DNA from: Verrucomicrobiota bacterium | GTDB lineage: Bacteria; Verrucomicrobiota; Verrucomicrobiia; Limisphaerales; CANJSG01 | Length of the DNA stretch: 64,000 nucleotides | Assembly: GCA_038209745.1 (NCBI GenBank) | Contig: JBBQXJ010000005.1 | Coordinates: 1 to 64,000 of the forward strand | Direction: 5' to 3' | In this document: one piece after another, positions 5,136-53,327 of the stretch | Position numbering within the stretch: position 1 is the first letter of the stretch | Layout: each line of letters opens with the position of its first letter | Program-made: the position numbers and the translations under genes | The notes under the pieces: generated by a model | Databases searched by the model: none | Seen by the model: the letters and a program-made list of their open reading frames with translations, nothing else | Told to the model about the DNA's origin: nothing

Positions 5136-7181
5136 CTATGCCATGCTGGCTCCATCGACCCTGGGTCCGGTGATCGACGGTTCCGGATCGTTCCGGACGG
5201 ACATGTCGTCGACCGTGACGGGCAGGACGAGAAAAGCCAGGCCGAGCTTGTAGAGCCGGCGCTGGAGGCTGAAGACGGTGTAGTTGTGCAGCAGGCGCGT
5301 CAGCCAGGTCTCGTGTTCGAAGACGAGCTGTCCGCCGAAGAAAACCACGTCGCCGTGGGTGCGGTGGATCTCCTGGGCGAGACGCGTGACTTCGCCGACG
5401 ACATCCGTCCCCACCTCGGTGACCACTTCGGCTTCGTGGCCCTGATGGCGCATCCAGGCCACGTAGCGTTCGCCTTCGGCGGCGATGTGCTCGCGGAGGC
5501 GATCGACTTCGGCGGCGCCCTTGAAATTGCCCGCGTCGACCACGCCGACCTGGACGAAGATGTAGCGGCGGAAACTTTCGCCGAAGAGCCGCATGACATG
5601 GAGGAGCGTATGTAGCCCGAGGCCGTTGAAACCATTCACGAGGATCACGGCCGTCTTCCCGCCCGGTCGGCGTGGTTTGACCAGGGCCGGTGGTTCGGCC
5701 AACAGCAGCTCGGCCGCTTCCACGATGGGATCGAGCCGGGCCAGGCCCGCGCGGGTGGCCTGGTAATGGCGCTTCACTCCGAAGGCCACCGCGACCAGGG
5801 CGCCCGTGACGAGCAGGGTGATCCAGCCGCCCTCGTGGAACTTGATCACCGTGAGGATGACGAGGATGGAGGAGGTGACGAGGAGGCCGACGCCGTTGAT
5901 CGCGATCTTCCTTTTCCAGTGAGCCTCGCTGGACCGGCCGTGCCACCAATGAAGGACCATGCCCAGCTGGGACAGGGTGAACGTGATGAAGACGTTGATG
6001 CTGTAGAGGACTACGAGCAGTTCGACCGCGGCATGGGTCCCGAGCAACACCAGGGTCGCGGCGGAACCCATGATCAGGATTCCGTTCATGCTGACGAAGC
6101 GGTCGCTCAGCGCGGTGAACCGGGCCGGAAACCAGCGGTCCAAAGCCATGTTGGCCAGCACCCGGGGGCCATCCAGGAAACCGGCCTGCGCCGCGACGAA
6201 CAACAGGGCCGCGGAGGCGCACAACGAAGTGACGACGAACACATGCCCGGGCAGGCCCCAGCCGGCGGTGATGCGCTCGAACAGAACCGCGTTGAGCGTC
6301 TTGCCGGCAACCGGGCCCACGTGGTGGAGGAGATAGGCCACGAGGAGGCCGGCCACCATGACGGCCAGCGACACCCCCATGTAGAGCATCGTGCGTTTGC
6401 CCGTCTGGACGCGCGGCTCGCGCAGGATCGGCAGACCGTTGCTGACCGCCTCGATGCCCGTGAAAGTGCCGGCGCCCATGCTGAAGGCCCGCAGAAGCAG
6501 CGCCCCCAGGCCGAGCCAGCCCAGCTCCGCGCGGGTGGCCTGAAAGTCTCCCGCCGTGGATGCGGCGATCGAGGGAAGATCCGCCGCGTGCTGGCCGATG
6601 GCCGTGACGATCATCACCAGATGCGTCACCAGGAAGAGGCCGAAGATCGGCACGAAAATGAGAACCGACTCCCGCACGCCCCTCAGGTTCAGCAGGGTGA
6701 GAAGCCCCACGCCGGCGAAGGCCACCGGGAGCTTGAACTGGTGCCATTCCACCGGGAGGAAGCTGAAGATCGCGTCCGCACCGCTGGCGATCGAAATGGC
6801 GATCGTCAGCACGTAGTCGATCAGGAGCGCCGACCCGGAGACCACTCCCGCCGTGGGCGAGAGCAGCTTGGTCGCGACGAGATAGCCGCCACCGCCCGAG
6901 GGGAAGAGCTCGATGATCTGGGAGTAGCTCGCGCAGATCACGAGGATCGTGCCGACGCACATCAGCATGACGATCAGCGAGAGGTGCGGATGTGCCGCGA
7001 GCGCCTTGAAGGTCTCCTCCGGTCCGTAGCACGAGGACGACAAGCCGTCCGCGCCGAGTCCGACCCACGCCAGCAGGGCGACGAGCGAGACTTTGTGGAA
7101 GAGGCCGGAGTCGGACAGGTTCCGCGCGCGGCCGATGGCAAGGTTTCTCAGACGGGTTTGCAGCGATGGATTCTCGTTCAT
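5136..7181 (-). CDS. kimA: APC-family permease, KimA/YdaO-like potassium transporter
   Basis: About 12 TM segments, GADGLSSSCYGPEE (KimA D..SS..Y motif), TGIEAVSNG, soluble C-terminal domain, and an upstream c-di-AMP riboswitch. Confidence 0.8.
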   Translation of the reverse strand: MNENPSLQTRLRNLAIGRARNLSDSGLFHKVSLVALLAWVGLGADGLSSSCYGPEETFKALAAHPHLSLIVMLMCVGTILVICASYSQIIELFPSGGGGYLVATKLLSPTAGVVSGSALLIDYVLTIAISIASGADAIFSFLPVEWHQFKLPVAFAGVGLLTLLNLRGVRESVLIFVPIFGLFLVTHLVMIVTAIGQHAADLPSIAASTAGDFQATRAELGWLGLGALLLRAFSMGAGTFTGIEAVSNGLPILREPRVQTGKRTMLYMGVSLAVMVAGLLVAYLLHHVGPVAGKTLNAVLFERITAGWGLPGHVFVVTSLCASAALLFVAAQAGFLDGPRVLANMALDRWFPARFTALSDRFVSMNGILIMGSAATLVLLGTHAAVELLVVLYSINVFITFTLSQLGMVLHWWHGRSSEAHWKRKIAINGVGLLVTSSILVILTVIKFHEGGWITLLVTGALVAVAFGVKRHYQATRAGLARLDPIVEAAELLLAEPPALVKPRRPGGKTAVILVNGFNGLGLHTLLHVMRLFGESFRRYIFVQVGVVDAGNFKGAAEVDRLREHIAAEGERYVAWMRHQGHEAEVVTEVGTDVVGEVTRLAQEIHRTHGDVVFFGGQLVFEHETWLTRLLHNYTVFSLQRRLYKLGLAFLVLPVTVDDMSVRNDPEPSITGPRVDGASMA

Positions 7182-41743: not shown

Positions 41744-42382
41744 ATGAACCGCTCCGAGATCCTCGCCCAATTGACCGCCGCCAAGATCGTCGCCGTCATC
41801 CGCGCCAAACGCACCGACCAGGCCCTGCCCCTCTGCCGCGCGCTCGTCGCCGGCGGGGTGACCAATCTGGAGATCACCATGACCACGCCGAATGCGCTCC
41901 AAGCCATCCGCGAAGTGGCGGCAGCGCTGGGCGGACAAGCCTTGGTCGGCGTCGGCACGATCCTCGACGCGGCCACGGCCACGGCGGCGATCGAAGCCGG
42001 CGCCCAATTTGTGGTCACCCCGATCATGCGTCCGGACATCGCCAAAGCCGCCCACGCGCTGGACAAACCCGTCATGCTCGGCGCCTACACGCCCACCGAG
42101 GCCCAACTCGCCCACGAAGCCGGCGCCGACTGCGTCAAGCTCTTCCCCGCCGAAGGCCTCGGCCTCGCCTACATCAAATCCCTTCGCGCCCCGTTGCCGC
42201 ACTTGAAGATCGTCCCCACCGGCGGCGTGGACCTGAACAACGTGGCCGACTTCTTCGCCGCCGGCTGCACGGCGGTCGGCGTCGGCTCCAGCCTGATCAG
42301 CGCCCACGTGCTGGCCAACGACGACTGGGAGGCATTGACGAGGAAAGCGGCGGAATTTTCCGCGAAGGTGCAAGGGCTGTAG
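41744..42382 (+). CDS. eda: KDPG/KHG aldolase
   Basis: EIT, GAQFVVTP, TPTE, VKLFPA and PTGGV motifs. Confidence 0.92.
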   Translation: MNRSEILAQLTAAKIVAVIRAKRTDQALPLCRALVAGGVTNLEITMTTPNALQAIREVAAALGGQALVGVGTILDAATATAAIEAGAQFVVTPIMRPDIAKAAHALDKPVMLGAYTPTEAQLAHEAGADCVKLFPAEGLGLAYIKSLRAPLPHLKIVPTGGVDLNNVADFFAAGCTAVGVGSSLISAHVLANDDWEALTRKAAEFSAKVQGL

Positions 42383-42519
42383 CCGTCGTTGCTATTCTCT
42401 CCACCCGGAGACCGTGTTCTCAACGGAACGCGGTCACGGAGAATTCTGCTGCCACAGAACTTCGATTAGACGCAACTCCATCAAGACAGATCCATTTTCG
42501 AACCGACCCGCGCCAAATC

Positions 42520-42918
42520 ATGCAAGGCAGACTCCCCAGCATCCTGACCGTCGGATTCCTTTTGGCCGGTTGCGCCACGAACCCGTCTCGGCCCCTCGCG
42601 GACCCATCGAGGGCAGCTGAAGTCGTGGTGATCCACCAGGACTCCATCCTCTGCGGCGCGGATATTTTCGGCAAAGTGACGGTTGACGGATATGTCGTAG
42701 CCACCCTTTTCCCCGGAAAATACGTCCGTCTGAAGCTGGATGCGGGCGTCCATCGCATCGGCACCACGGATGGGAGCGCACCGTTTCATCTCGAGGCAAA
42801 CCGACACTACTTCTTTGTGGTGACCGCCGGCTACAGAGGCATCTTCACCACTGAACGGATCGACGGGGCGGTCGCGACCAAGTTCCTGCCCATATCCAAA
42901 GCAGCCACGCTCCAGTGA
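42520..42918 (+). CDS. Small lipoprotein (DUF2846-like)
   Basis: Lipobox LLAGC; VTVDG..VATL..G.Y..L.L.AG.H pattern. Confidence 0.7.
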   Translation: MQGRLPSILTVGFLLAGCATNPSRPLADPSRAAEVVVIHQDSILCGADIFGKVTVDGYVVATLFPGKYVRLKLDAGVHRIGTTDGSAPFHLEANRHYFFVVTAGYRGIFTTERIDGAVATKFLPISKAATLQ

Positions 42919-43016
42919 GTCTACGGAGCGGGTTCAGGTCGATTCGGCCAAAAGCGGTCGTCTCCGATCAGAAGACGGACGCCGGAGATAGCCGCCCGTC
43001 TCTCGCCTCCGTCTCC

Positions 43017-43434
43017 GCATGAACAACCTCTTGAGCCTCCACATTTAGAGAGCTTGGCCAAGCGGGCGATCTGGAAGCCGGGGAGCTTGCGGCGGCGCAG
43101 GGCCAGGACTCGGAGGACCCGCAGACGATGGAGGCCGTCCGGGGAGCGTTTTGGCCTAGAAGAACGGGTCTCAAGACCGCAGTGCCATCGGCGCGGAAAC
43201 GGGCCAGCCACTTCTGGGCCGAGCCGACCGCGATCCCGAACCCGAACCCGGCGGCGACCTCGGCGACGGGCTGGCGGAGTTCCACGATGCGCTTTACCAG
43301 TTCGGCTCGACCCAGCGGGGTGAGCTTGGCATTGCTATGGGCGTTCATGCGGGGGTGGTTCCTAGATCGGTGTTGTTTTCACAATCCCATCGGTCCAGCT
43401 CCGCCTCGCATGAACACCCTCCCGGAACATCACA
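43017..43434 (-). mobile_element. IS481-family remnant (left end, frameshifted 5' transposase, and a second IS481-type end)
   Basis: End TGTGATGTTCCGGGAGGGTGTTCAT at 43434. MNAHSNAKLTPLGR…KWLARF starts at 43348, then shifts frame to RSSRPKRSP. It is cut at 43043 by TGTGGAGGCTCAAGAGGTTGTTCAT. Confidence 0.8.
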
Positions 43435-43567
43435 GCTAGCCAAATCTCCCCGCCTTGTGGCTCAGCGTCTTCGGCCGTAGGAAAAAAGACCCTTCCCATC
43501 GACCCTCATCTCGCGAGATTGCCCTTGCCATTGATCGGGTCTGGTGGCAGAAATTCAGACCCTTGAT

Positions 43568-43644
<77 letters not shown>

Positions 43645-43657
43645 ATTTCAAATCGTG

Positions 43658-43701
43658 AAGTCCCGTGACTGTTGAAGACAGCGCGGGATTTCCGCTTTTT
43701 C
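43658..43701 (+). terminator. Probable terminator after tRNA-fMet
   Basis: AAGTCCCGTG…CGCGGGATTT hairpin followed by CTTTTT. Confidence 0.5.
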
Positions 43702-43710
43702 AGGGATCAA

Positions 43711-43752
43711 CTCCAGTCCACAGCCTCCAGTCCACAGCCTCCAGTCCACAGC
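43711..43752. repeat. Tandem repeat (CTCCAGTCCACAGC)x3
   Basis: Three exact 14-bp units. Confidence 0.9.
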
Positions 43753-43849
43753 CGCAGCCCGGAAATGGTCGGTCGACTTCGCAATCGCCTCCCGTGGATT
43801 TCACCGCGACTCTGGCGTTCGCAATCCAGCCTCCTTCGCGCGGCATCCC

Positions 43850-44638
43850 ATGAACCCAGGACCAGTGACGTTATCTCTCCGGAGCCTGACCAAACGCTTC
43901 GGCTCACAGATCGCGGTCGACGCGCTCACCTTCGACGTTCCCGCGGGCCAGATCGTCGGGTTCCTCGGACCGAACGGCGCCGGGAAGTCGACGACATTGA
44001 AAATGCTGACCGGGATGCTCCAACCGACCGCCGGTTCCGCCACGGTCTGCGGCTTCGACCTCGCGACCCAGGCCATCGAAGTGAAGCGCCACATCGGCTT
44101 CGTGCCGGACTCGGGCGCGGTCTTCGAATCGCTGTCCGGACTCGAGTATCTGGAGATGGTCGCCTCCCTCTATGCGATTCCGCCACGCGCCGCGTTGGAG
44201 CGGATCCGCCAGTTCATCGCCTTCTTCGACCTCAGCTTCGAGACCCTGACCGACAAGCTGCTGGGCGCATATTCCAAGGGCATGCGGCGCAAGGTCGTGA
44301 TCACCGCCGCCCTCCTCCACAATCCGCAGGTCGTCTTCTTCGATGAACCTCTGGACGGGCTGGACGCCAACGCGGCCGTCGGATTCAAGGCGCTGATCCA
44401 GACTCTGGCCAGAGAGGGCAAGACCATCGTCTACAGCTCCCACGTCCTCGACGTGGTGGAGCGGGTTTGCGACCGCGTGATCATCATCGACAAAGGGCGC
44501 CTCTTGCTCGACGGCAAACCGGACCAACTGGTGGCCGAGCATCGGTCAGGCACCTTGGAACGGCTCTTCACGGATCTGACCGGCGGGGCGGAACTGGAAC
44601 GGCGCGCGGAAGACTTCGGCCGCACTTTCCGGCAATGA
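43850..44638 (+). CDS. ABC transporter ATP-binding protein
   Basis: GPNGAGKST, YSKGM, FFDEP and SSH motifs. Confidence 0.95.
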   Translation: MNPGPVTLSLRSLTKRFGSQIAVDALTFDVPAGQIVGFLGPNGAGKSTTLKMLTGMLQPTAGSATVCGFDLATQAIEVKRHIGFVPDSGAVFESLSGLEYLEMVASLYAIPPRAALERIRQFIAFFDLSFETLTDKLLGAYSKGMRRKVVITAALLHNPQVVFFDEPLDGLDANAAVGFKALIQTLAREGKTIVYSSHVLDVVERVCDRVIIIDKGRLLLDGKPDQLVAEHRSGTLERLFTDLTGGAELERRAEDFGRTFRQ

Positions 44639-46287
44639 GCGACGTCGTCACCCAGCCTCCGCCCATCCCGCCGGACCCGCCAGCGCCACCGGTCCGGAAA
44701 GCGTTGCGCCGTCTCTATCTGACCTTGTTTCTGCGCGGGCGATCGTCGCGGGGACTGCAGAAGGGCAAGGCCCCACAATCGATCGGATCGAAGCTGGCGC
44801 TAAGCCTGTTCTTCTACGCCTTGATGGGATTGATGGCGCTCTTCTTCCTGCGCCACACGGTCCATGTGATGTCGGTCTATCTCCACGCGATGACCCAGGT
44901 CTTCCTCGGGTTGTTCCTCTCGGCTTCGGCGGGGGAGATCCTGTTCAACAAGGAGGAGGGCGACATTCTCCTGCACCGTCCGATCAAGCCCGGCGTGCTG
45001 CTCTGGGCCAAGATCGGCGTCATGGTGGAGGTGTCCCTCTGGCTGGCCGGCGCCTTCAATCTGGCGGGCCTGGTCGGCGGCGTGTTCGTCAAAGACGGAG
45101 GCTGGATGTTCCCCGTGGTCCACGTGGTGTCCACCGCGTTGAGCGCATTGTTCTGCGCCGGCTCGGTGGTGTTGATCTACCAGTTGTGCCTTCGCTGGTT
45201 CGGCCGCGAAAAGCTGGATGGTCTGATGACCACGGCCCAAGTGCTGGTGGCGATCGTGGCGGTGACCGCCGGGCAAATCCTGCCCCGCATGATGGGCCGC
45301 ATGGGCGATCAAGTGGCCGCTGCCGCGACTTCCTGGTGGATCGCGATTCTCCCGCCGGCCTGGTTCGCGGCGATGGACGACGCCGTGGCCGGCAGCGGGG
45401 CCACCGCTTCCTGGATGTTGGGCGTTCTCGGCGTGGTCATCACCGCCACGGTGCTGTGGCTGGCCTTTGGCAAACTGGCGGCCACCTACGAATCCGGACT
45501 GCAATCGCTCTCCGAAGCCCAGCCCGCCAGGCCGAGGCTCCCATCGGGACGGGGCGGTCTGGAGCGGTTGCTGGGCTTTGCCCCGTTGCGCTGGTGGCTG
45601 CGCGACCCGGTGGAGCGCGCTTCCTTTCTCCTGTGCGCGGCCTACCTGCTGCGAGACCGGGATGTGAAGCTCCGCGTCTACCCCGGCATCGCCCCGATGC
45701 TGGTTCTGCCCGTCGTTTTTCTCATGGGCGGAACCCGCGGCGGCCCAGGGTCGGGCAACGAGTTCGGCCTGGTCATGGCGGGAGCCTACCTGGGAATCGT
45801 GCCGATCCTCGGGGTCTCGATGCTGCAATACTCGCAACAATGGCAGGCCGCGGACCTGTTCCGCGCCACGCCCTTGGCCGGCCCAGGCCCGCTGTGCCAC
45901 GGCGCTCGGCGCGCCGTCCTGTTCTTCCTGGCCTTGCCGGTTGTGGCCATCGCCATGGTGCTGATGACTCTCATCTCCGGATCGCCGGCTCCTCTGCTGA
46001 TGCTCATCCCAGGTCTGCTCCTGATGCCGGTCTGCTCGATGATCCCCTGCCTTTCAGGCGGTGGCGTTCCGCTCTCGCTCCCGACGGAAGAGGCCAAGTC
46101 CGCCGGCCGTGGCGTGATGATATTCGGCGCCATGATCGGTGCGGCCGTCGTCTCCGGCATGGCGGCGTTCGCCAAGTCATTCGGTTGGTTCTGGCCCTTC
46201 GTCGGCGTGGAGCTGCTGCTCGTGCTGGCCGTCTGCCGTGTCCTCGGCGCGAAGATCCGGTCCGCCCGCTGGAAGCCGATGGAGTAG
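44635..46287 (+). CDS. ABC-2-type exporter permease
   Basis: Multi-TM protein overlapping the ATPase stop codon (ATGA). Confidence 0.8.
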   Translation: MSDVVTQPPPIPPDPPAPPVRKALRRLYLTLFLRGRSSRGLQKGKAPQSIGSKLALSLFFYALMGLMALFFLRHTVHVMSVYLHAMTQVFLGLFLSASAGEILFNKEEGDILLHRPIKPGVLLWAKIGVMVEVSLWLAGAFNLAGLVGGVFVKDGGWMFPVVHVVSTALSALFCAGSVVLIYQLCLRWFGREKLDGLMTTAQVLVAIVAVTAGQILPRMMGRMGDQVAAAATSWWIAILPPAWFAAMDDAVAGSGATASWMLGVLGVVITATVLWLAFGKLAATYESGLQSLSEAQPARPRLPSGRGGLERLLGFAPLRWWLRDPVERASFLLCAAYLLRDRDVKLRVYPGIAPMLVLPVVFLMGGTRGGPGSGNEFGLVMAGAYLGIVPILGVSMLQYSQQWQAADLFRATPLAGPGPLCHGARRAVLFFLALPVVAIAMVLMTLISGSPAPLLMLIPGLLLMPVCSMIPCLSGGGVPLSLPTEEAKSAGRGVMIFGAMIGAAVVSGMAAFAKSFGWFWPFVGVELLLVLAVCRVLGAKIRSARWKPME

Positions 46288-46312
46288 GCCAAGCCGACCC
46301 CCGTTTCAGAAA

Positions 46313-46388
46313 ATAGCCGCCGACGTGAGGAAGCAACGACGGGAGGCATGATAAGCCGTTAAATCCGCCTCGTTACCTCGGCGGCTAC
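46313..46388. repeat. Inverted REP doublet, third GTAG family
   Basis: ATAGCCGCCGACGTGAGGAAGC and reverse-strand GTAGCCGCCGAGGTAACGAGGCGG. Confidence 0.7.
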
Positions 46389-46458
46389 AAAGCGGCGGCC
46401 GCTTCAACAGCGTTCCGATTATGGCCCCGCCTTCTTGGCCGCTGCTTGGATATCCTCG

Positions 46459-48723
46459 TCACTGGTGGACCCGGTTGCCGGCGGGATCGATGATCGTCGC
46501 GGTGATGAGGACGAAGAGGTGTTTGGTCGTTCGAGTCGTCACGTCAGCGGCTTCGCCATCCGCCTTCACCCGACCGTGGACGGTGTTCGTATCCGTGGAT
46601 GTCAAGCCGCCCACCAGCAACGATTGACCGTCCAAGATCCTCGCGGTCGAAGTAAAATAGCACGTGCGCATTCTGGGCAACGGCAACGTCCCCTTGATGG
46701 GTTCAGCCCCTCCGATGGAGCGCTCGGGAACAAACCCATTCGGATCGTCATACCCGAGAAACTCGGAGTCCGTGGCGATGACCGTCAGTGCGAGGGTGAA
46801 TCCATCGGCTTCCACGTAGGGAATCACGTCTAAAGTCGGACCAAATGGAATCGCACTGGTGTTGTAGGCGATGTCCGATGTTCCTAATGGCGAATTGGTC
46901 GATGAGACGCCGGTGACGACGGTCCTCAGTTCCAGCGTGGAGATCTGGGCTTGCCGTCCGGACAAGGTGGTCACCCTCGGCGCGGTGATGATCGAGGACC
47001 CTTTGGTTCCTTCCATGGATTTCAGGAGCTCGCGGGCCTGTTCTGGTGTGAGGATCGCTGCTTTTTCAGAATTTGCAGAGTCCACCCTGATTGTCGGGTT
47101 TGCCTCCTGGAATACCTTCGCCTTATTGGTTCCGGAGAGTTCCGGTTCGGCAACCGGATGTGGAGTGAGTGCCGGCCAGTCCTTCGCCAACACCTTCATT
47201 CCCTCGTCGGAGACCTCGATCCTCTTTGCTTCGATCGTGATCTGGGGAGGAGCCGCATTGAGCACTTCAATCGCGGATTGAATGACCTCCAAATCGCTTC
47301 CCCAAGCCCTCACCATCAGTAGACCGGTTCGGTCGTTGAAAAACACCGCTTTGGGCGGAGTCAGGTCCACCCCCACTTGGGTGAAATAGCTCCTTACTAG
47401 GCTGTGGATATGGGCAGGCAGGGTCGTTGATGCTTCGAGCTTTTCCCCAATGTCTAGTTGGGACTCCGAAGTTTGTTTCTCTTCGCCAGTGCCAAGTTGG
47501 GGCTCAACTACGCTTTTCAAAGCCTGAACAAACGTATTCGGATCCACCTTGAAAACCCGTGTGACCAGGTTGGTGTCCTGCGGCTTTACCTCCTGCTTCA
47601 ACGCGATGCTCGGCTCATCCCGATGCAACGCCTTGCCCACCTGGTTCACCGGAGAATCTCCGCCCGTTCGACAGGCGCTGAGGGCCACCATCGCCGCCCC
47701 GGCTCCAACGAGCGCAGCCGCACTCCATCTCCATCCCGGTTTCGGTAAACTTGGTGACTCTTCGGAGGATTCCAACAGCCGCTCGACCCGCAGGCCCAAG
47801 TCGGAGTGATCGCCATCGCCCGCTGCTGCCAGCATGGGCCACGGGGCGACCGGGCCCGGCTTTGCGGCCAAGGCCACCAAGGCTTCGGCCAAGCTGCCGT
47901 TGAGGGGACCGGCCAACCGACTCGCTTCGTCTGCCGCCAGTTCACAGGCGGTATGCAGTCGCCGCCGAACCAGCCACACCGCCGGATGCCACCAGAGCAA
48001 CGGCGCCAACACTTCGCCCAGACAGCGCCAGAGCGCGTCCAAGCCCGCGATGTGGGCGAACTCATGCGCCAGCACCGCGCGTTGATGATCCGGAGTGAAC
48101 GCATCCGAGAAGTCCGACGGCAGACACACGACCGGCCGGAGCAGGCCAAAGGTCATGGGCGACGCCAACGCCCCTTGGCGCAGCTCAGGCGTCCGGTTCA
48201 TCCCCAGTTGTTCCCGCACCTCCTTGGCGCGCTGGAGCAACTCCGTGTCGTTCACCGCTTGGAAGCGGCGGCGCACCAACGACAAAAGACCCAACGCCAG
48301 TCCACACCGCGCCAGCAGCAATCCGGTGCCCGCGATCCAACCCATCGCCAACCACCCCGCGATCCGATCCTTGGACGCCGTGGCTGCGACCAATGGTTTC
48401 GCCACCAGAGAAACCGAGGAGGTGGACAGCACCATCGCCGCCCTTGGTGTCGTGGGCTGTTGCGAAGACGCCGCCGCGATGGCCGCCGCTTCGGTCGGTC
48501 TTTCAACCCGCTTCCACATCGGCGCCAAGGCTCCTCGGGCTCCGGTCCACTCCGCGAGCGCCACTCCTACCAACAACGTGGCTGTCGAAAGCCAGACCGC
48601 GCGCTGGATCTGGGCCCGCTCCAGTCGCCGCGCGAAGAGTTCGGCCAGGGCGACGACCACCACTCCGGCGACGCCGAGGCCGGCGAGGGACAGGAACAAC
48701 GGATTCCAGTCGGTCGGGTTCAT
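46459..48723 (-). CDS. M56 (BlaR1-type) metallopeptidase fused to a secretin-like domain
   Basis: SPMTFGLLRPVVCLP, HEFAH, WWHPAVW and CELAAD. C-terminal FNDRTGLLMVR, PQITIEAK, APRVTTLSGRQAQI, GPTLDVIP, DGQSLLVGGL and LITATIIDPAG. Confidence 0.85.
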   Translation of the reverse strand: MNPTDWNPLFLSLAGLGVAGVVVVALAELFARRLERAQIQRAVWLSTATLLVGVALAEWTGARGALAPMWKRVERPTEAAAIAAASSQQPTTPRAAMVLSTSSVSLVAKPLVAATASKDRIAGWLAMGWIAGTGLLLARCGLALGLLSLVRRRFQAVNDTELLQRAKEVREQLGMNRTPELRQGALASPMTFGLLRPVVCLPSDFSDAFTPDHQRAVLAHEFAHIAGLDALWRCLGEVLAPLLWWHPAVWLVRRRLHTACELAADEASRLAGPLNGSLAEALVALAAKPGPVAPWPMLAAAGDGDHSDLGLRVERLLESSEESPSLPKPGWRWSAAALVGAGAAMVALSACRTGGDSPVNQVGKALHRDEPSIALKQEVKPQDTNLVTRVFKVDPNTFVQALKSVVEPQLGTGEEKQTSESQLDIGEKLEASTTLPAHIHSLVRSYFTQVGVDLTPPKAVFFNDRTGLLMVRAWGSDLEVIQSAIEVLNAAPPQITIEAKRIEVSDEGMKVLAKDWPALTPHPVAEPELSGTNKAKVFQEANPTIRVDSANSEKAAILTPEQARELLKSMEGTKGSSIITAPRVTTLSGRQAQISTLELRTVVTGVSSTNSPLGTSDIAYNTSAIPFGPTLDVIPYVEADGFTLALTVIATDSEFLGYDDPNGFVPERSIGGAEPIKGTLPLPRMRTCYFTSTARILDGQSLLVGGLTSTDTNTVHGRVKADGEAADVTTRTTKHLFVLITATIIDPAGNRVHQ

Positions 48724-49103
48724 AGGTCTTTCTTTTTGTCGGCGATGAGTTTCTCCAAACGGGCCAGCTCCTTCGCGCTGATCTTCCGGTCCTTCAACAG
48801 ATGGCTGACCAGGTCGGAGACGCTGCCCTGGAAGATCCTTTCCAGCAGATGGCTGGTCATCCCTTGGTTCACCTGCTCGGGCTGGACCACCGCGCGGTAG
48901 ATGAAAGTGCGGCCCTCGTTGCGGTGCCCGACGAGGCCCTTCTCCTCCATCCGGCGGAGCAGTGTGGCCAGCGTGGTGTAGGCGTGGGCCTCCGTGCCCA
49001 ACGCCTCATGCACGTCGGCCACCGAGGCCTCGGTGCGGGACCAGAGGAACTGGAGGATGCGATGCTGGAGATCGCCCAATCGATGGAGTCGTGGAGTCGG
49101 CAT
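48720..49103 (-). CDS. BlaI/MecI/CopY-family repressor
   Basis: LQ..I...LW, AYTT..TLL.R.EEKG.V and GRTFIY; overlaps the M56 start. Confidence 0.93.
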   Translation of the reverse strand: MPTPRLHRLGDLQHRILQFLWSRTEASVADVHEALGTEAHAYTTLATLLRRMEEKGLVGHRNEGRTFIYRAVVQPEQVNQGMTSHLLERIFQGSVSDLVSHLLKDRKISAKELARLEKLIADKKKDL

Positions 49104-49119
49104 GGTGAACGACAGTAGT

Positions 49120-49139
49120 AATACTACCTGTGTAGTATT
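49120..49139. promoter_or_regulatory. BlaI-type operator palindrome
   Basis: AATACTAC-CTGT-GTAGTATT, a perfect 8-bp inverted repeat 17 bp upstream of the repressor start. Confidence 0.85.
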
Positions 49140-49196
49140 GTCGGCAAGAGAAAAGAGCCGCCCGCTTCGATGGCTCGAAACGGGCGCTTCAAGTCA

Positions 49197-49222
49197 GGGC
49201 CGCGCGGCAACGCGGCCCTACC
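49197..49222 (-). repeat. Single GTAG REP-like hairpin
   Basis: Reverse complement GGTAGGGCCGCGTTGCCGCGCGGCCC. Confidence 0.6.
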
Positions 49223-49231
49223 GGGATGGGG

Positions 49232-50383
49232 TCAGGCTTTGACCTGTTTGACCTTGGTCCACTTCTTGGTCTTGGCGGAGGAGAGCACGGCGTCGACCAC
49301 GTAGTCGGTGGCGAGACCGTCCTTGAAGTCGGGTTTGGGCGCTTCGCCCTTCTCCAGGGCGCTGAGGAATTCGACGACCTGGTGGATGAAGCTGTGTTCG
49401 TAGCCGAGCTGGAGACCGGGCACCCACCAGTTGCCGGTGTAGGGATGGTCGCCATCGGAGACGTGGACGCTCTTCCAGCCCCGTTCGCGGCCTTCGTCGG
49501 CGTGGTCGAAGATCTGGAGGCGGTGCAGGTCGTGCAGGTCCCACTTCAGGGACATGTGCTCGCCGTTGACCTCGAACGTGTAGAGCGCCTTGTGGCCTCG
49601 GGCGTAGCGGGTGGACTCGAAGAGGCCGAGAGACCCGTTGTTGAAGTGGCAGAGGAAGGAGCAGGCGTCGTCGATGGTGACCTTCTGGACCTTGCCGGTG
49701 AGGGTGTGCTTGCGCTCCTTGATGAATGTCTCGGTCATGGCCGTGACGTCCTTGATGCCGCCGTTGAGCCAGAGCGCGGTGTCGATGCAGTGGGCGAGCA
49801 GATCGCCGGTGACCCCTGAGCCGGCGGCCTTGGCATCGAGACGCCAGAGGCCGGCGCCGCCCTGCGGGAGATCGGGGCTGATGGTCCAGTCCTGGAGGAA
49901 ATTGGCGCGGTAGTGGAAGACCTTGCCTAGCTTGCCTTCGTCGATGAGCTGCTTGGCCAGGGTGACGGCCGGGCAACGGCGGTAGTTATACCAGACCATG
50001 TTCGGCACTTTGGCCTTCTGCACGGCCTTGACCATGGCCTCGGCTTCCTTGGCATTCAGCGCGAGGGGCTTTTCGCAGAGGATCATCTTGCCCGCTTTCG
50101 CCGCAGCCAAGGCGATCTCGGCGTGGAGGTTGTTCGGGACGGCGATGTCGACGATGTCGATGTCGTCGCGGGCGATGAGTTTCTTCCAGTCGGTCTCGAT
50201 GGACTGGTAGCCCCATTTGTCAGCGAATTCCTGGGCCTTGGTGGCGTCGCGGGCGCAGACGGCTTGAAGGACGAGTTCGTAGCCGGAGGGGAAAAAGTGA
50301 CCGACCTGGCTGAAGGCGTTGGAGTGGGCGCGGCCCATGAAGCCGTAGCCGATGAGACCGATGCGGAGTTGTTTCTTTGCCAT
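49232..50383 (-). CDS. Gfo/Idh/MocA oxidoreductase
   Basis: [15 protein letters not shown] and GDLLAHCID motifs. Confidence 0.93.
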
Positions 50384-52004: not shown

Positions 52005-52244
52005 AGATTGTTCCTGGGGACGGCCTTCGACGGTATCGGCGGAGTCGGGTCAATCAATCCGAAAGTGTCGGACATTCGGGGGGGCGGTTCTTTGGCCTCT
52101 CCACGGGTCAGCATTTTCCCTTTGCTTTTAAGGAGGTGGGTCCCCGGTTTAACGGCTTCCGACGGCCTCCTTTGCCGGGTTGTTCAAATCGTTGAACGAC
52201 TTTCGCTCCGGTCCGTCGTGATTGGCTTTGCCAAACTCAGCCCG

Positions 52245-53327
52245 ATGACTCCATTTCAGGAAATGACGAATGGCCGGATCTCATCTTTGTCCTTCTGGTG
52301 TCATCGCGGAGTGCTTCGTTTGGCCAGCTGGTTGCTGTTGGTCGCTGCGCTGCTCGCGGCCCGCGAAGTCAAGGCAGGTGGGCAGGGCCCGGTCTTGACG
52401 ATGACAGAGGAGAACGACCTCTTTCTGAACACGGATCGCCACTACACGCAGGGGCTGAAGTTCACCTACATGTTCGGTGACGATGAGGTCCCTGACTTCG
52501 CCATCGGCTGGGCCACGAACCTTCCCTCCCTTGGCTACGAGGTGCAGCATGCCAAAGCCGGGTTCACCATCGGCCAGTCGATCTTCACCCCGGCGGACAC
52601 CGCGACCACGGCGCTGATTCCGACCGATCGACCCTACGCTGGGTGGTTGTATCTCGGGCTGATTCTGCAACGGAACGGAACGAACCAGTTTCTGGGGCAG
52701 ATCTTCGGCCAGCATCGGTCGTTGGAGAACCTGGAGATCTCGCTCGGCGTGGTCGGCCCTTGGGCGCTGGGCAAGGAGGCCCAAACCTGGGTCCATCAGC
52801 TCCGGGGCTTCGATCTTCCCCAAGGCTGGAGCCACCAGTTGCGCAACGAGCCCGCGGTCCAGTTCCGCTACACCCGCATGTGGGACCATCGCTCACCGGA
52901 GGTTTGGGAGCCTTTTTCCATCGATCTCATCCCTCACTGGGGCGCCAGCCTTGGGACGGTCTATGTCTTCGGCAACGTCGGCGTCACGGTGCGGATGGGT
53001 CTCAACGTCCCCCTTGATTTCGGCACCTCGACCATCGACGCGCCCACGGTGGAGTCGGGCGAAGGGATCCGTCCAAAATGGGGGGTCTACGCGTTTTCCG
53101 GGGTCGACGGACGGGCGGTCGGCTGGAACACATTTCTCGACGGCAACGTCTTCCGCGACACCGACCATGTGGAAAAGCGGAACCTCGTCGGTGATTTCAA
53201 GGTAGGCGGTGTCCTGGTCCTTAAAAAGGTCGAACTTGGCTACACCTACATCCTCCGTTCCGCAGAATACGTGTCCCAGCAACAACGGGACGCATTTGGC
53301 TCCATCAGCCTTAAATGGAAGTTCTGA
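52245..53327 (+). CDS. lpxR: Lipid A 3'-O-deacylase LpxR-family (DUF2219) outer-membrane protein
   Basis: ENDLF..TDRHYTQG, GQSIFTP, DRPYAGWLY, GW.HQL.NEP and C-terminal Phe; start uncertain. Confidence 0.85.
   Translation: MTPFQEMTNGRISSLSFWCHRGVLRLASWLLLVAALLAAREVKAGGQGPVLTMTEENDLFLNTDRHYTQGLKFTYMFGDDEVPDFAIGWATNLPSLGYEVQHAKAGFTIGQSIFTPADTATTALIPTDRPYAGWLYLGLILQRNGTNQFLGQIFGQHRSLENLEISLGVVGPWALGKEAQTWVHQLRGFDLPQGWSHQLRNEPAVQFRYTRMWDHRSPEVWEPFSIDLIPHWGASLGTVYVFGNVGVTVRMGLNVPLDFGTSTIDAPTVESGEGIRPKWGVYAFSGVDGRAVGWNTFLDGNVFRDTDHVEKRNLVGDFKVGGVLVLKKVELGYTYILRSAEYVSQQQRDAFGSISLKWKF

Follow-up and report, generated by a model that had tools for sequence, protein, structure and literature searches.

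A BlaI/M56 gene pair with a PilQ-related secretin module in a Verrucomicrobiota bacterium, a candidate self-regulated proteolytic switch

RESULTS

A BlaI-like repressor gene overlaps a gene for an M56-secretin fusion

We examined a 64,000-nt stretch of DNA (the window) from a Verrucomicrobiota bacterium (GCA_038209745.1, contig JBBQXJ010000005.1, positions 1-64,000 of the forward strand), the genome assembly of which comprises 4.58 Mb in 140 contigs and is 92% complete. On the minus strand of the window lies a cassette of two genes, one for a BlaI-like repressor and one for a 754-aa protein in which a zinc protease of the Peptidase_M56 family is joined to a secretin-like C-terminal half (Table 1). 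A model-made first-pass annotation had described a BlaI-family repressor overlapping a 754-aa gene, with an operator palindrome in front, an intact M56 protease carrying HEFAH, a secretin-like C terminus, and no beta-lactam-binding domain. Each of these elements was recovered in our analysis, including both open reading frames (ORFs) and the 4 nt that they share.

The 127-aa protein matched the Pfam family Penicillinase_R with an E value of 7.7e-32 and 110.5 bits against a cut-off of 22.6, and its best solved relatives in the PDB are 2G9W (2e-10) and MecI (3.7e-8). We also considered that it might be a copper repressor of the CopY type. This identity was rejected: the NCBIfam model CopY_TcrY gave 69.6 bits, below its cut-off of 121.95, and the C-terminal half of BlaI has no Cys, which sets it apart from the Cys-rich C-terminal metal site that we take to be typical of CopY. 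Genome-wide, there is one BlaI gene and one M56 gene.

The protease half of the partner protein scored 93.7 bits with Peptidase_M56 (E 1.5e-26; Pfam cut-off, 31), and HEFAH occupies residues 220-224. An HExxH motif is present in 92 of 92 M56 rows examined, and 15 full-length relatives show no variation at H220, E221, H224, E261, or D265. Residues 184-265 align with positions 165-246 of the BlaR1 structures 8EXP and 8EXS, including HEYAH and EVEAD, to the latter of which E261 aligns as the downstream Glu. No transpeptidase or beta-lactam-binding family was found in the 754-aa protein by Pfam at E ≤ 1, and models specific to BlaR1 fell far under their cut-offs in NCBIfam (blaR1_generic, 56.5 versus 400 bits; sensor_BlaR1, 15.5 versus 1200 bits). 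Hydropathy marks membrane segments at residues 9-27, 132-150, and 333-351. If the topology is the one known for BlaR1, residues 352-754 would lie outside the cytoplasm.

The C-terminal half resembles the genome's own type IV pilus secretin

The Pfam Secretin family matched residues 573-714 of the fusion protein (E 2.1e-10, 40.9 bits against a cut-off of 27.5). A match to Secretin_N was weak (0.029), and a match to NCBIfam Amuc_1098_fam, which describes type IV pilus outer-membrane proteins, was partial (3.5e-18, 65 bits against a cut-off of 750). An AlphaFold2 model of residues 352-754, built from a 74-row alignment, had a mean predicted local distance difference test score (pLDDT) of 82.3 and a predicted template modelling score of 0.71, with blocks of the core at pLDDT 81-97. 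When this model was compared with the PDB in Foldseek, the first 40 matches were all secretins (E 3e-13 to 5e-6), among them BfpB in first place along with GspD, PilQ, InvG, pIV, XcpQ, and RcpA. VIA-align likewise returned secretins for its top 28 entries (Z 8.3-10.8, with 149-254 residues aligned, spanning model residues 23-403); from the next entry, at Z 6.0, the matches were unrelated small alpha/beta domains that fit the N-type domain only. A sequence search of the PDB with the module reaches BfpB only (1.3e-4). On the evidence of the model, the C-terminal half of the protein is a secretin fold.

The nearest paralogue in the genome is a 970-aa PilQ encoded in a pilM-pilQ cluster on another contig (G000:C20:13844-16756; tblastn, 1.4e-62). 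Pairwise alignment gave 65% identity over 79 residues of the N-type domain and 42% in the core; by this comparison, the secretin module is paralogous to the PilQ of the organism's type IV pilus. In the fusion, a polytopic membrane domain of 351 residues comes before the module, with no N-terminal signal peptide of the secretin type. Constraint on the core is evident among 74 sequences, in which 7 columns are invariant and 38 nearly so; conserved motifs include VTTLSGRQAQ, PFGPxLDVIP, EFLGYDDP, DGQ, and IIDPAGNRVH. Conservation in the domain is highest in the core strands, through which secretin subunits contact one another.

A short secretin-like frame also occurs elsewhere in this genome (L094:1435-1850, plus strand, equivalent to G000:C33 ~5934-6350). 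It reads FIEE...TPDQTKKLL...LSTPRLTTHSGRQAQISV...GPNVDLVPTM, shares 35% identity with residues 547-650 of the fusion (tblastn, 3.6e-10), and stops where a gene on the opposite strand starts. The Pfam search of the genome did not report this frame, which may represent either a fragment or a gene for a mini-domain.

Elements for membrane insertion are missing or reduced

According to three papers, the amphipathic helical loop (AHL) is the most conserved element of secretins and is required for membrane association (PMC6532946, PMC8134430, PMC10653833), and the stretch between the N-type domain and the core of type IVa pilus secretins is described as the beta-lip (PMC10653833). The AHL motif VPxLGDxPxxGxLF is absent from the fusion protein. 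At the aligned site, the organism's own PilQ reads KDKIPVLGDLPLVGRLFRSE and the fusion reads TNTVHGRVKADGEAADV, a polar replacement that bears out the first-pass annotation on the missing loop. In the AlphaFold2 model, the replacing segment prolongs the last beta-hairpin, with its turn at KADGE. The Secretin match of the fusion spans profile positions 5-129 of 169, whereas those of the genome's five other secretins run from positions 1-3 through 168-169.

Besides the loss of the AHL, the beta-lip is shortened, a point that goes beyond the earlier annotation. The unaligned stretch between the N-type domain and the core is ~40 residues in the fusion and 93 in PilQ; in overall length, the beta-lip stretch has 83 residues against 136, a difference of ~50. 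It was modelled as two helices and a low-confidence Pro-rich loop.

To place these losses in the family, we scored the AHL in 121 rows (120 homologues, minus one lacking the C-terminal strand, plus the query and its own PilQ). The motif was absent from 65 of the 92 rows with M56 and present in the other 27, while rows without M56 had it in all but one case (28/29). Rows with the AHL nearly always show a spacing of 42 residues, and rows lacking it have a linker of variable sequence that measures 16-62 residues. A maximum-likelihood tree was computed from the last 330 residues with the AHL columns removed; it was a quick search with several long branches, and the counts of changes taken from it are approximate. 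Free secretins form one clade of 27 rows (SH-aLRT, a Shimodaira-Hasegawa-like approximate likelihood ratio test, 100). Three changes are required for the M56 label. One concerns P0051, a short row without M56 on a 2.4-kb contig and probably a fragment, and another concerns P0101, a row without M56 whose placement on a long branch is unresolved. The AHL label changes 13 times; all of these changes fall in the M56 part of the tree, and well-supported branches force at least 4 of them. The AHL thus appears to have been lost repeatedly, at least four times, and only in M56 fusions. Among the 65 of 121 rows that could be parsed by regular expression, the lip stretch had medians of 71 and 84.5 residues in fusions and 125 residues in the comparison group.

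The fusion recurs across genomes together with BlaI

The first-pass annotation had asked whether the fusion might be an assembly artefact or confined to one genome. Among 446 homologues (E ≤ 0.001), 90 of the best 120 carry PF05569 and PF00263 together, as read from a precomputed Pfam column. One of these 90, which belongs to another assembly, is 96% identical. Source names are generic and were assigned automatically. Species-representative genomes yielded, on scanning, 18 loci with M56 and a secretin module, in a single frame in 15 (one with its tail in the next frame) and in adjacent frames in 3. In every fusion locus that has upstream DNA (17/17), a same-strand BlaI gene immediately precedes the fusion, and no BlaI match was found near free secretins (0/39 loci). 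When 301 genomes of the class were searched with an alignment, 245 gave matches, mostly to the PilQ part, and at least 11 genomes of the same order had both halves in one open frame among 150 of 454 matches listed. An earlier phylum-wide search, conducted with a single protein and two candidates per genome, found the fusion in 5 of 401 genomes and was set aside as insensitive. In the ESM Atlas, clusters of 50-102 members from Verrucomicrobiota and Planctomycetota are named for both domains, and clusters combining M56 with STN/N0 occur in Acidobacteriota. The M56-secretin fusion is neither an artefact nor rare. Literature searches outside subscription journals found no published study of it; the architecture is widespread, automatically labelled in databases, and unstudied.

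Some homologues are longer (900-1300 aa; P0020, P0047, P0053, P0065, P0067, P0077, P0080, P0086, and others) and carry additional modules between M56 and the secretin core, namely, ExbD (PF02472), SecDF_P1_head (PF22599), Poly_export/SLBB, Thioredoxin_7, CarboxypepD_reg, and TPR; a second AHL-like motif is found in the middle of some of these proteins. Three loci (L047, L050, and L037) come from metagenome-assembled genomes labelled Dongiaceae, Bifidobacterium, and "Candidatus Acidoferrum," which most likely reflects errors of binning or labelling and not gene transfer.

A conserved operator marks the cassette

A 28-nt operator of two adjoining dyads precedes the repressor gene (Table 1). It is situated between a -35-like hexamer, TTGCCG, and the ATG, covering a -10-like hexamer, TAGTAT. 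These hexamers presumably form the promoter, an assignment made by eye and by analogy with the TTGAC of related loci; the promoter scan found no sigma-70 consensus promoter in 46200-49400. At 0-1 mismatch, the core palindrome has its sole match in the 4.58-Mb assembly here. Among 17 other loci, some of which are Planctomycetota M56 genes without a secretin, the operator follows the consensus ACTACC-N2-GGTAGTATTACC-N2-GGTAnT just 3' of TTGAC. A matrix built from these 17 foreign sites gave the window operator 36.4 bits and the next-best site in the genome 12.9.

The first-pass annotation had proposed scanning for the palindrome to define a regulon. Scans of the same assembly with the palindrome at 0-1 and at up to 2 mismatches, a 28-nt position weight matrix, and single dyads disclosed no convincing BlaI site beyond the cassette's own operator. 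For single dyads, the reversed-sequence control gave 62 matches, which is an unfair expectation because the reversed sequence is a different word with its own frequency. The operator is conserved across genomes, and the only BlaI target demonstrable from these scans is the cassette itself.

At five loci (L039, L047, L050, L070, and L078), a more distant BlaI is accompanied by duplicated CTnTACA-N2-TGTAnAG dyads flanking TTGAC. Two repressor/operator lineages would thus serve the same M56-secretin sensor architecture.

Setting of the cassette

The neighbours of the cassette in the window are genes for an ABC ATPase, a membrane protein, an oxidoreductase, a TIM-barrel protein, and LpxR. Flanking genes vary from locus to locus and are mostly housekeeping genes; none is conserved across 17 loci, and a prepilin-like ORF was seen at a single locus. 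No assembly cluster for a type II or type III secretion system (T2SS or T3SS), type IV pili (T4P), or phage was found adjoining the fusion gene. A terminator-like hairpin, at which the upstream oxidoreductase gene ends, is predicted to insulate the cassette (Table 1). PADLOC assigned the fusion to no defence family and gave BlaI only weak winged-helix similarities. Rfam and ARAGORN, run over 42000-50000, found nothing except a tRNA-Met gene (43568-43644, plus strand, by ARAGORN; 63.3 bits in Rfam). Adjoining this tRNA gene is a 126-aa ORF (42968-43348, minus strand) that matches only the leucine-zipper N terminus of an IS481-type transposase (1.8e-8) and may be the remnant of an insertion. The ABC ATPase gene (43850-44638) is followed by a gene for a ~549-aa hydrophobic protein (44638-46287, plus strand) without a Pfam family, which converges on the 3' end of the fusion gene and may encode an uncharacterised ABC permease. 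The gene for LpxR, an outer-membrane lipid A 3'-O-deacylase, lies ~3 kb from the cassette (52230-53327, plus strand; 2.9e-93).

Table 1. Features of the BlaI/M56 cassette, in window coordinates
Feature	Position	Strand	Remarks
blaI-like repressor gene	48720..49103	-	127 aa; winged-helix Penicillinase_R domain
M56-secretin fusion gene	46459..48723	-	754 aa; start shares 4 nt with the blaI stop
Operator (28 nt)	49109..49136	-	ACTACACAGGTAGTATTACTACTGTCGT; two adjoining dyads
Core palindrome	49122-49137		TACTAC-ACAG-GTAGTA; 19 nt upstream of the ATG
Terminator-like hairpin	49159..49186	-	12 pairs, T-rich tail; ends the upstream Gfo/Idh/MocA oxidoreductase gene
Peptidase_M56 domain	47923..48669	-	residues 19-267; HEFAH codons at 48052-48066
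Last transmembrane segment (predicted)	47671..47727	-	residues 333-351; ends in lipobox-like LSAC
Periplasmic linker (predicted)	47569..47670	-	residues 352-385; low model confidence
Secretin N-type domain (predicted)	47209..47568	-	residues 386-505; ring-building, beta-alpha-beta-beta-alpha; ~25-residue disordered insert
Degenerate beta-lip stretch	47056..47208	-	residues 506-556; unalignable to own PilQ
Secretin core (predicted)	46462..47055	-	residues 557-754; ends 5 residues past the family motif DPAGN, no C-terminal extension
Segment in place of the AHL	46522..46602	-	residues 708-734; polar, 27 residues

DISCUSSION

Given the linkage of the two genes and the domains that they encode, it is probable that the cassette is a self-contained and self-regulated BlaI/M56 proteolytic switch of the BlaR1 type, with a periplasmic, inner-membrane-tethered input domain derived from PilQ. 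We assign this reading a probability of roughly 0.6. Under such a scheme, BlaI would sit on a double-dyad operator that overlaps its own promoter and keep the two-gene operon repressed. Its 754-aa partner would reside in the inner membrane with the zinc-protease site on the cytoplasmic side, as in BlaR1, and would display in the periplasm a PilQ-derived module made of one N-type, ring-building domain and a secretin core. A changed state of the secretin-derived domain would then switch on the protease, which would cleave BlaI and derepress the operon. We infer the topology, the cleavage of BlaI, the oligomeric state, and the nature of the signal. Because the AHL and most of the beta-lip, through which secretins enter the outer membrane, have been lost, the module is most likely an input domain in the periplasm and not a pore. 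The first-pass annotation had spoken of a one-component system; this term does not fit, since the repressor is one protein and the protease another.

As to what is sensed, the first-pass annotation had suggested secretin or pilus assembly or outer-membrane stress. Our leading guess, which is a tentative one, is lateral association with secretin subunits, either of the protein's own kind or PilQ. A more specific proposal, and a rather doubtful one, is that the module acts as a "reporter subunit" of the type IV pilus secretin. The fusion would then be an inner-membrane-tethered paralogue that assembles side by side with PilQ or with proteins of its own kind, and assembly or disassembly of the ring would be converted into proteolysis of BlaI by M56.

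Several observations weigh against the switch that we favor. No operator other than that of the cassette could be detected in the 92%-complete assembly, and the 17 loci have no conserved neighbours, so that we are left with a switch that has no visible output beyond itself. The BlaI residues aligned to the MecI cleavage dipeptide, at what we take to be the location of that site, are His-Leu and not Asn-Phe. Our view of the topology comes from hydropathy, by which one of the four expected membrane segments (~41-60) is below threshold. The control model of PilQ was poor (pLDDT 63), with the lip unmodelled and an 18-residue non-beta stretch at the AHL, and what we say of the structure of the lip therefore draws on sequence alignment and one model. 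Finally, 27 of the 92 fusions retain the AHL, which means that a loss of insertion need not apply to the entire family.

The lack of an output beyond the cassette makes it necessary to take seriously the idea that the fusion protein acts as the effector in its own right. A periplasmic ring or scaffold might be built from its secretin-derived module, alone or with PilQ subunits, and the BlaI/M56 loop would only set the dosage of the fusion, with no relay to other genes. This would suit a genome with one BlaI, one M56, and one detectable operator, the absence of conserved neighbours across the 17 loci, the conservation of both the core strands and the N-type ring-building domain, and the insertion of modules known from envelope machines (ExbD, SecDF_P1_head, Poly_export, and SLBB) into longer relatives. 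Yet the assembly lacks 8% of the genome, and our scans would miss sites that are weak or have a single dyad. Furthermore, other two-gene BlaIR-like operons act elsewhere; according to one preprint, loss of CenIR induces cell-envelope genes (bioRxiv 10.64898/2026.04.08.717257). We regard an effector role as unlikely, although it remains a serious competitor. It is also conceivable that the protein forms a functional secretin channel in the outer membrane and that its M56 domain adds an anchor in the inner membrane, which would make it a true envelope-spanning pore. The secretin fold and the full AHL, at its canonical 42-residue spacing, in 27 of 92 fusions speak for such a pore. In the protein from the window, however, the AHL is absent, the beta-lip is unalignable and ~50 residues shorter, and the Pfam match ends at profile position 129 of 169 when the five other secretins continue through 168-169; in addition, no T2SS, T4P, or T3SS genes lie alongside. 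For this protein, a pore is improbable.

Another possibility concerns the last membrane segment, which ends in ALSAC, with the codon for Cys351 at 47671-47673. The first-pass annotation had pointed to this Cys and suggested that the module is released as a lipoprotein. The motif is present, but the release idea fares poorly. It would require the segment to serve as an internal lipoprotein signal peptide that is processed by Lgt and Lsp with a cut after LSA, such that a lipid-anchored "liposecretin" is freed and a sensor-less M56 protease is left behind. The segment does have an n-region (K, R) and a 14-residue hydrophobic core ahead of LSAC, the Cys is retained in relatives down to 36% identity (P0006 and P0007) as well as in a second clade (P0008 and P0009), and the module's best sequence match in the PDB (E 1.3e-4) is the lipoprotein secretin BfpB. 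Still, although LSAC agrees with the lipobox pattern, it stands at the end of an internal segment (residues 333-351) that follows 332 residues and is no N-terminal signal peptide, and we know of no precedent for an internal lipoprotein signal. In the family, the pattern stands at the end of the last segment in 10 of 93 rows (the query and P0001-P0009, in two separate parts of the tree); P0021 has a Cys outside the pattern, and seven further matches inside the protease domain are false. With 83 of 93 members lacking a lipobox at this place, the mechanism of the family cannot depend on it, and the match to BfpB may merely reflect which secretins have been solved. Because the signal is internal and most members have no lipobox, we rate lipoprotein release low. 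Lower again, and in our opinion very unlikely, is the prospect that the secretin module is a functionless, decaying relic on an orphan M56/BlaI pair. Loss of the AHL, degeneration of the lip, and replacement linkers that vary in sequence and in length (16-62 residues) would be expected of a relic. An intact reading frame here and in 90 homologues among the best 120 listed would not, nor would strongly conserved motifs throughout the core or a confident model of it (blocks at pLDDT 81-97).

BlaI and BlaR1 are the textbook case of signalling through a membrane protease and control penicillin resistance in staphylococci. The cassette described here shares many features with BlaR1-BlaI and MecR1-MecI (Staphylococcus aureus and Bacillus licheniformis; 8EXP-8EXT): a zinc protease of the M56 family in which a Glu lies downstream of HExxH, an N-terminal half embedded in the membrane with a C-terminal domain that is extracytoplasmic in those proteins and predicted to be so here, an adjacent, translationally coupled winged-helix repressor, and a palindromic operator over the repressor's own putative promoter. 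It differs in having neither a penicillin-binding, transpeptidase-like sensor nor a divergent resistance gene, and in an operator that is a double dyad (ACTACC-N2-GGTAGT/ATTACC-N2-GGTAAT). Compared with the PilQ of Verrucomicrobiota (the Amuc_1098 family), the fusion has the same N-type domain, secretin core, and C-terminal motif IIDPAGNRVH. However, the M56 membrane domain takes the place of PilQ's TPR-rich N-terminal half and signal peptide, the fusion lacks the AHL, its lip is shortened, and its gene lies outside a pilus cluster. The liposecretin BfpB (PDB 9U5S), first in both the Foldseek comparison and the PDB sequence search, recalls the lipobox-like Cys that precedes the module of the fusion; in the fusion, the lipobox lies inside the protein and occurs in a few clades only, whereas BfpB carries its lipoprotein signal at the N terminus and forms an outer-membrane pore. 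Bacteria have other ways of informing transcription about the state of the envelope, including regulated proteolysis of the FecA-FecR-FecI type and the phage-shock response to mislocalised secretins. By analogy only, these resemble our switch in that an inner-membrane protein reports on a machine of the outer membrane or periplasm, but they involve unrelated protein families, and the cassette has no sigma/anti-sigma pair.

The closest counterparts in organization are noncanonical BlaIR-like systems, such as CenIR of Clostridioides difficile and the M56-TonB_C proteins of Bacteroides, which likewise pair M56 with BlaI and carry a C-terminal domain other than a beta-lactam sensor. According to a recent survey (bioRxiv 10.64898/2026.04.08.717257), ~15,000 M56 proteins fall into 254 architectures, only ~6% have a transpeptidase domain, and 96% have BlaI nearby; its authors argue that most M56 proteins sense something other than beta-lactams. 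In another preprint (bioRxiv 10.1101/2023.07.07.548152), M56-TonB fusions are described as uncharacterised. The word "secretin" has 0 occurrences in the text of the survey and is not among its eight named types of appended domain, although the data of its Fig. 7 or its Table S3 might list it. What distinguishes the domain appended here is that it comes from a family that normally forms outer-membrane pores of 12-15 subunits.

The practical importance of the cassette is modest, given that its host belongs to the Verrucomicrobiota of uncultured type and that the architecture is already labelled automatically in databases. Its value lies in an input domain with a clear pedigree, the pilus secretin of the same genome, and a clear trend, the repeated loss of the insertion loop, which is seen only after fusion. 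This provides a concrete and testable hypothesis for what one large group of orphan M56 switches monitors. If the reading as a reporter subunit were true, it would amount to a new principle of trans-envelope signalling, in which the oligomerisation of a domain from a pore family is the signal, and the repeated loss of the insertion loop would mark the step from pore to sensor. More generally, the M56-secretin family represents a natural experiment that sets the parts of a secretin for membrane insertion against those for contact between subunits.

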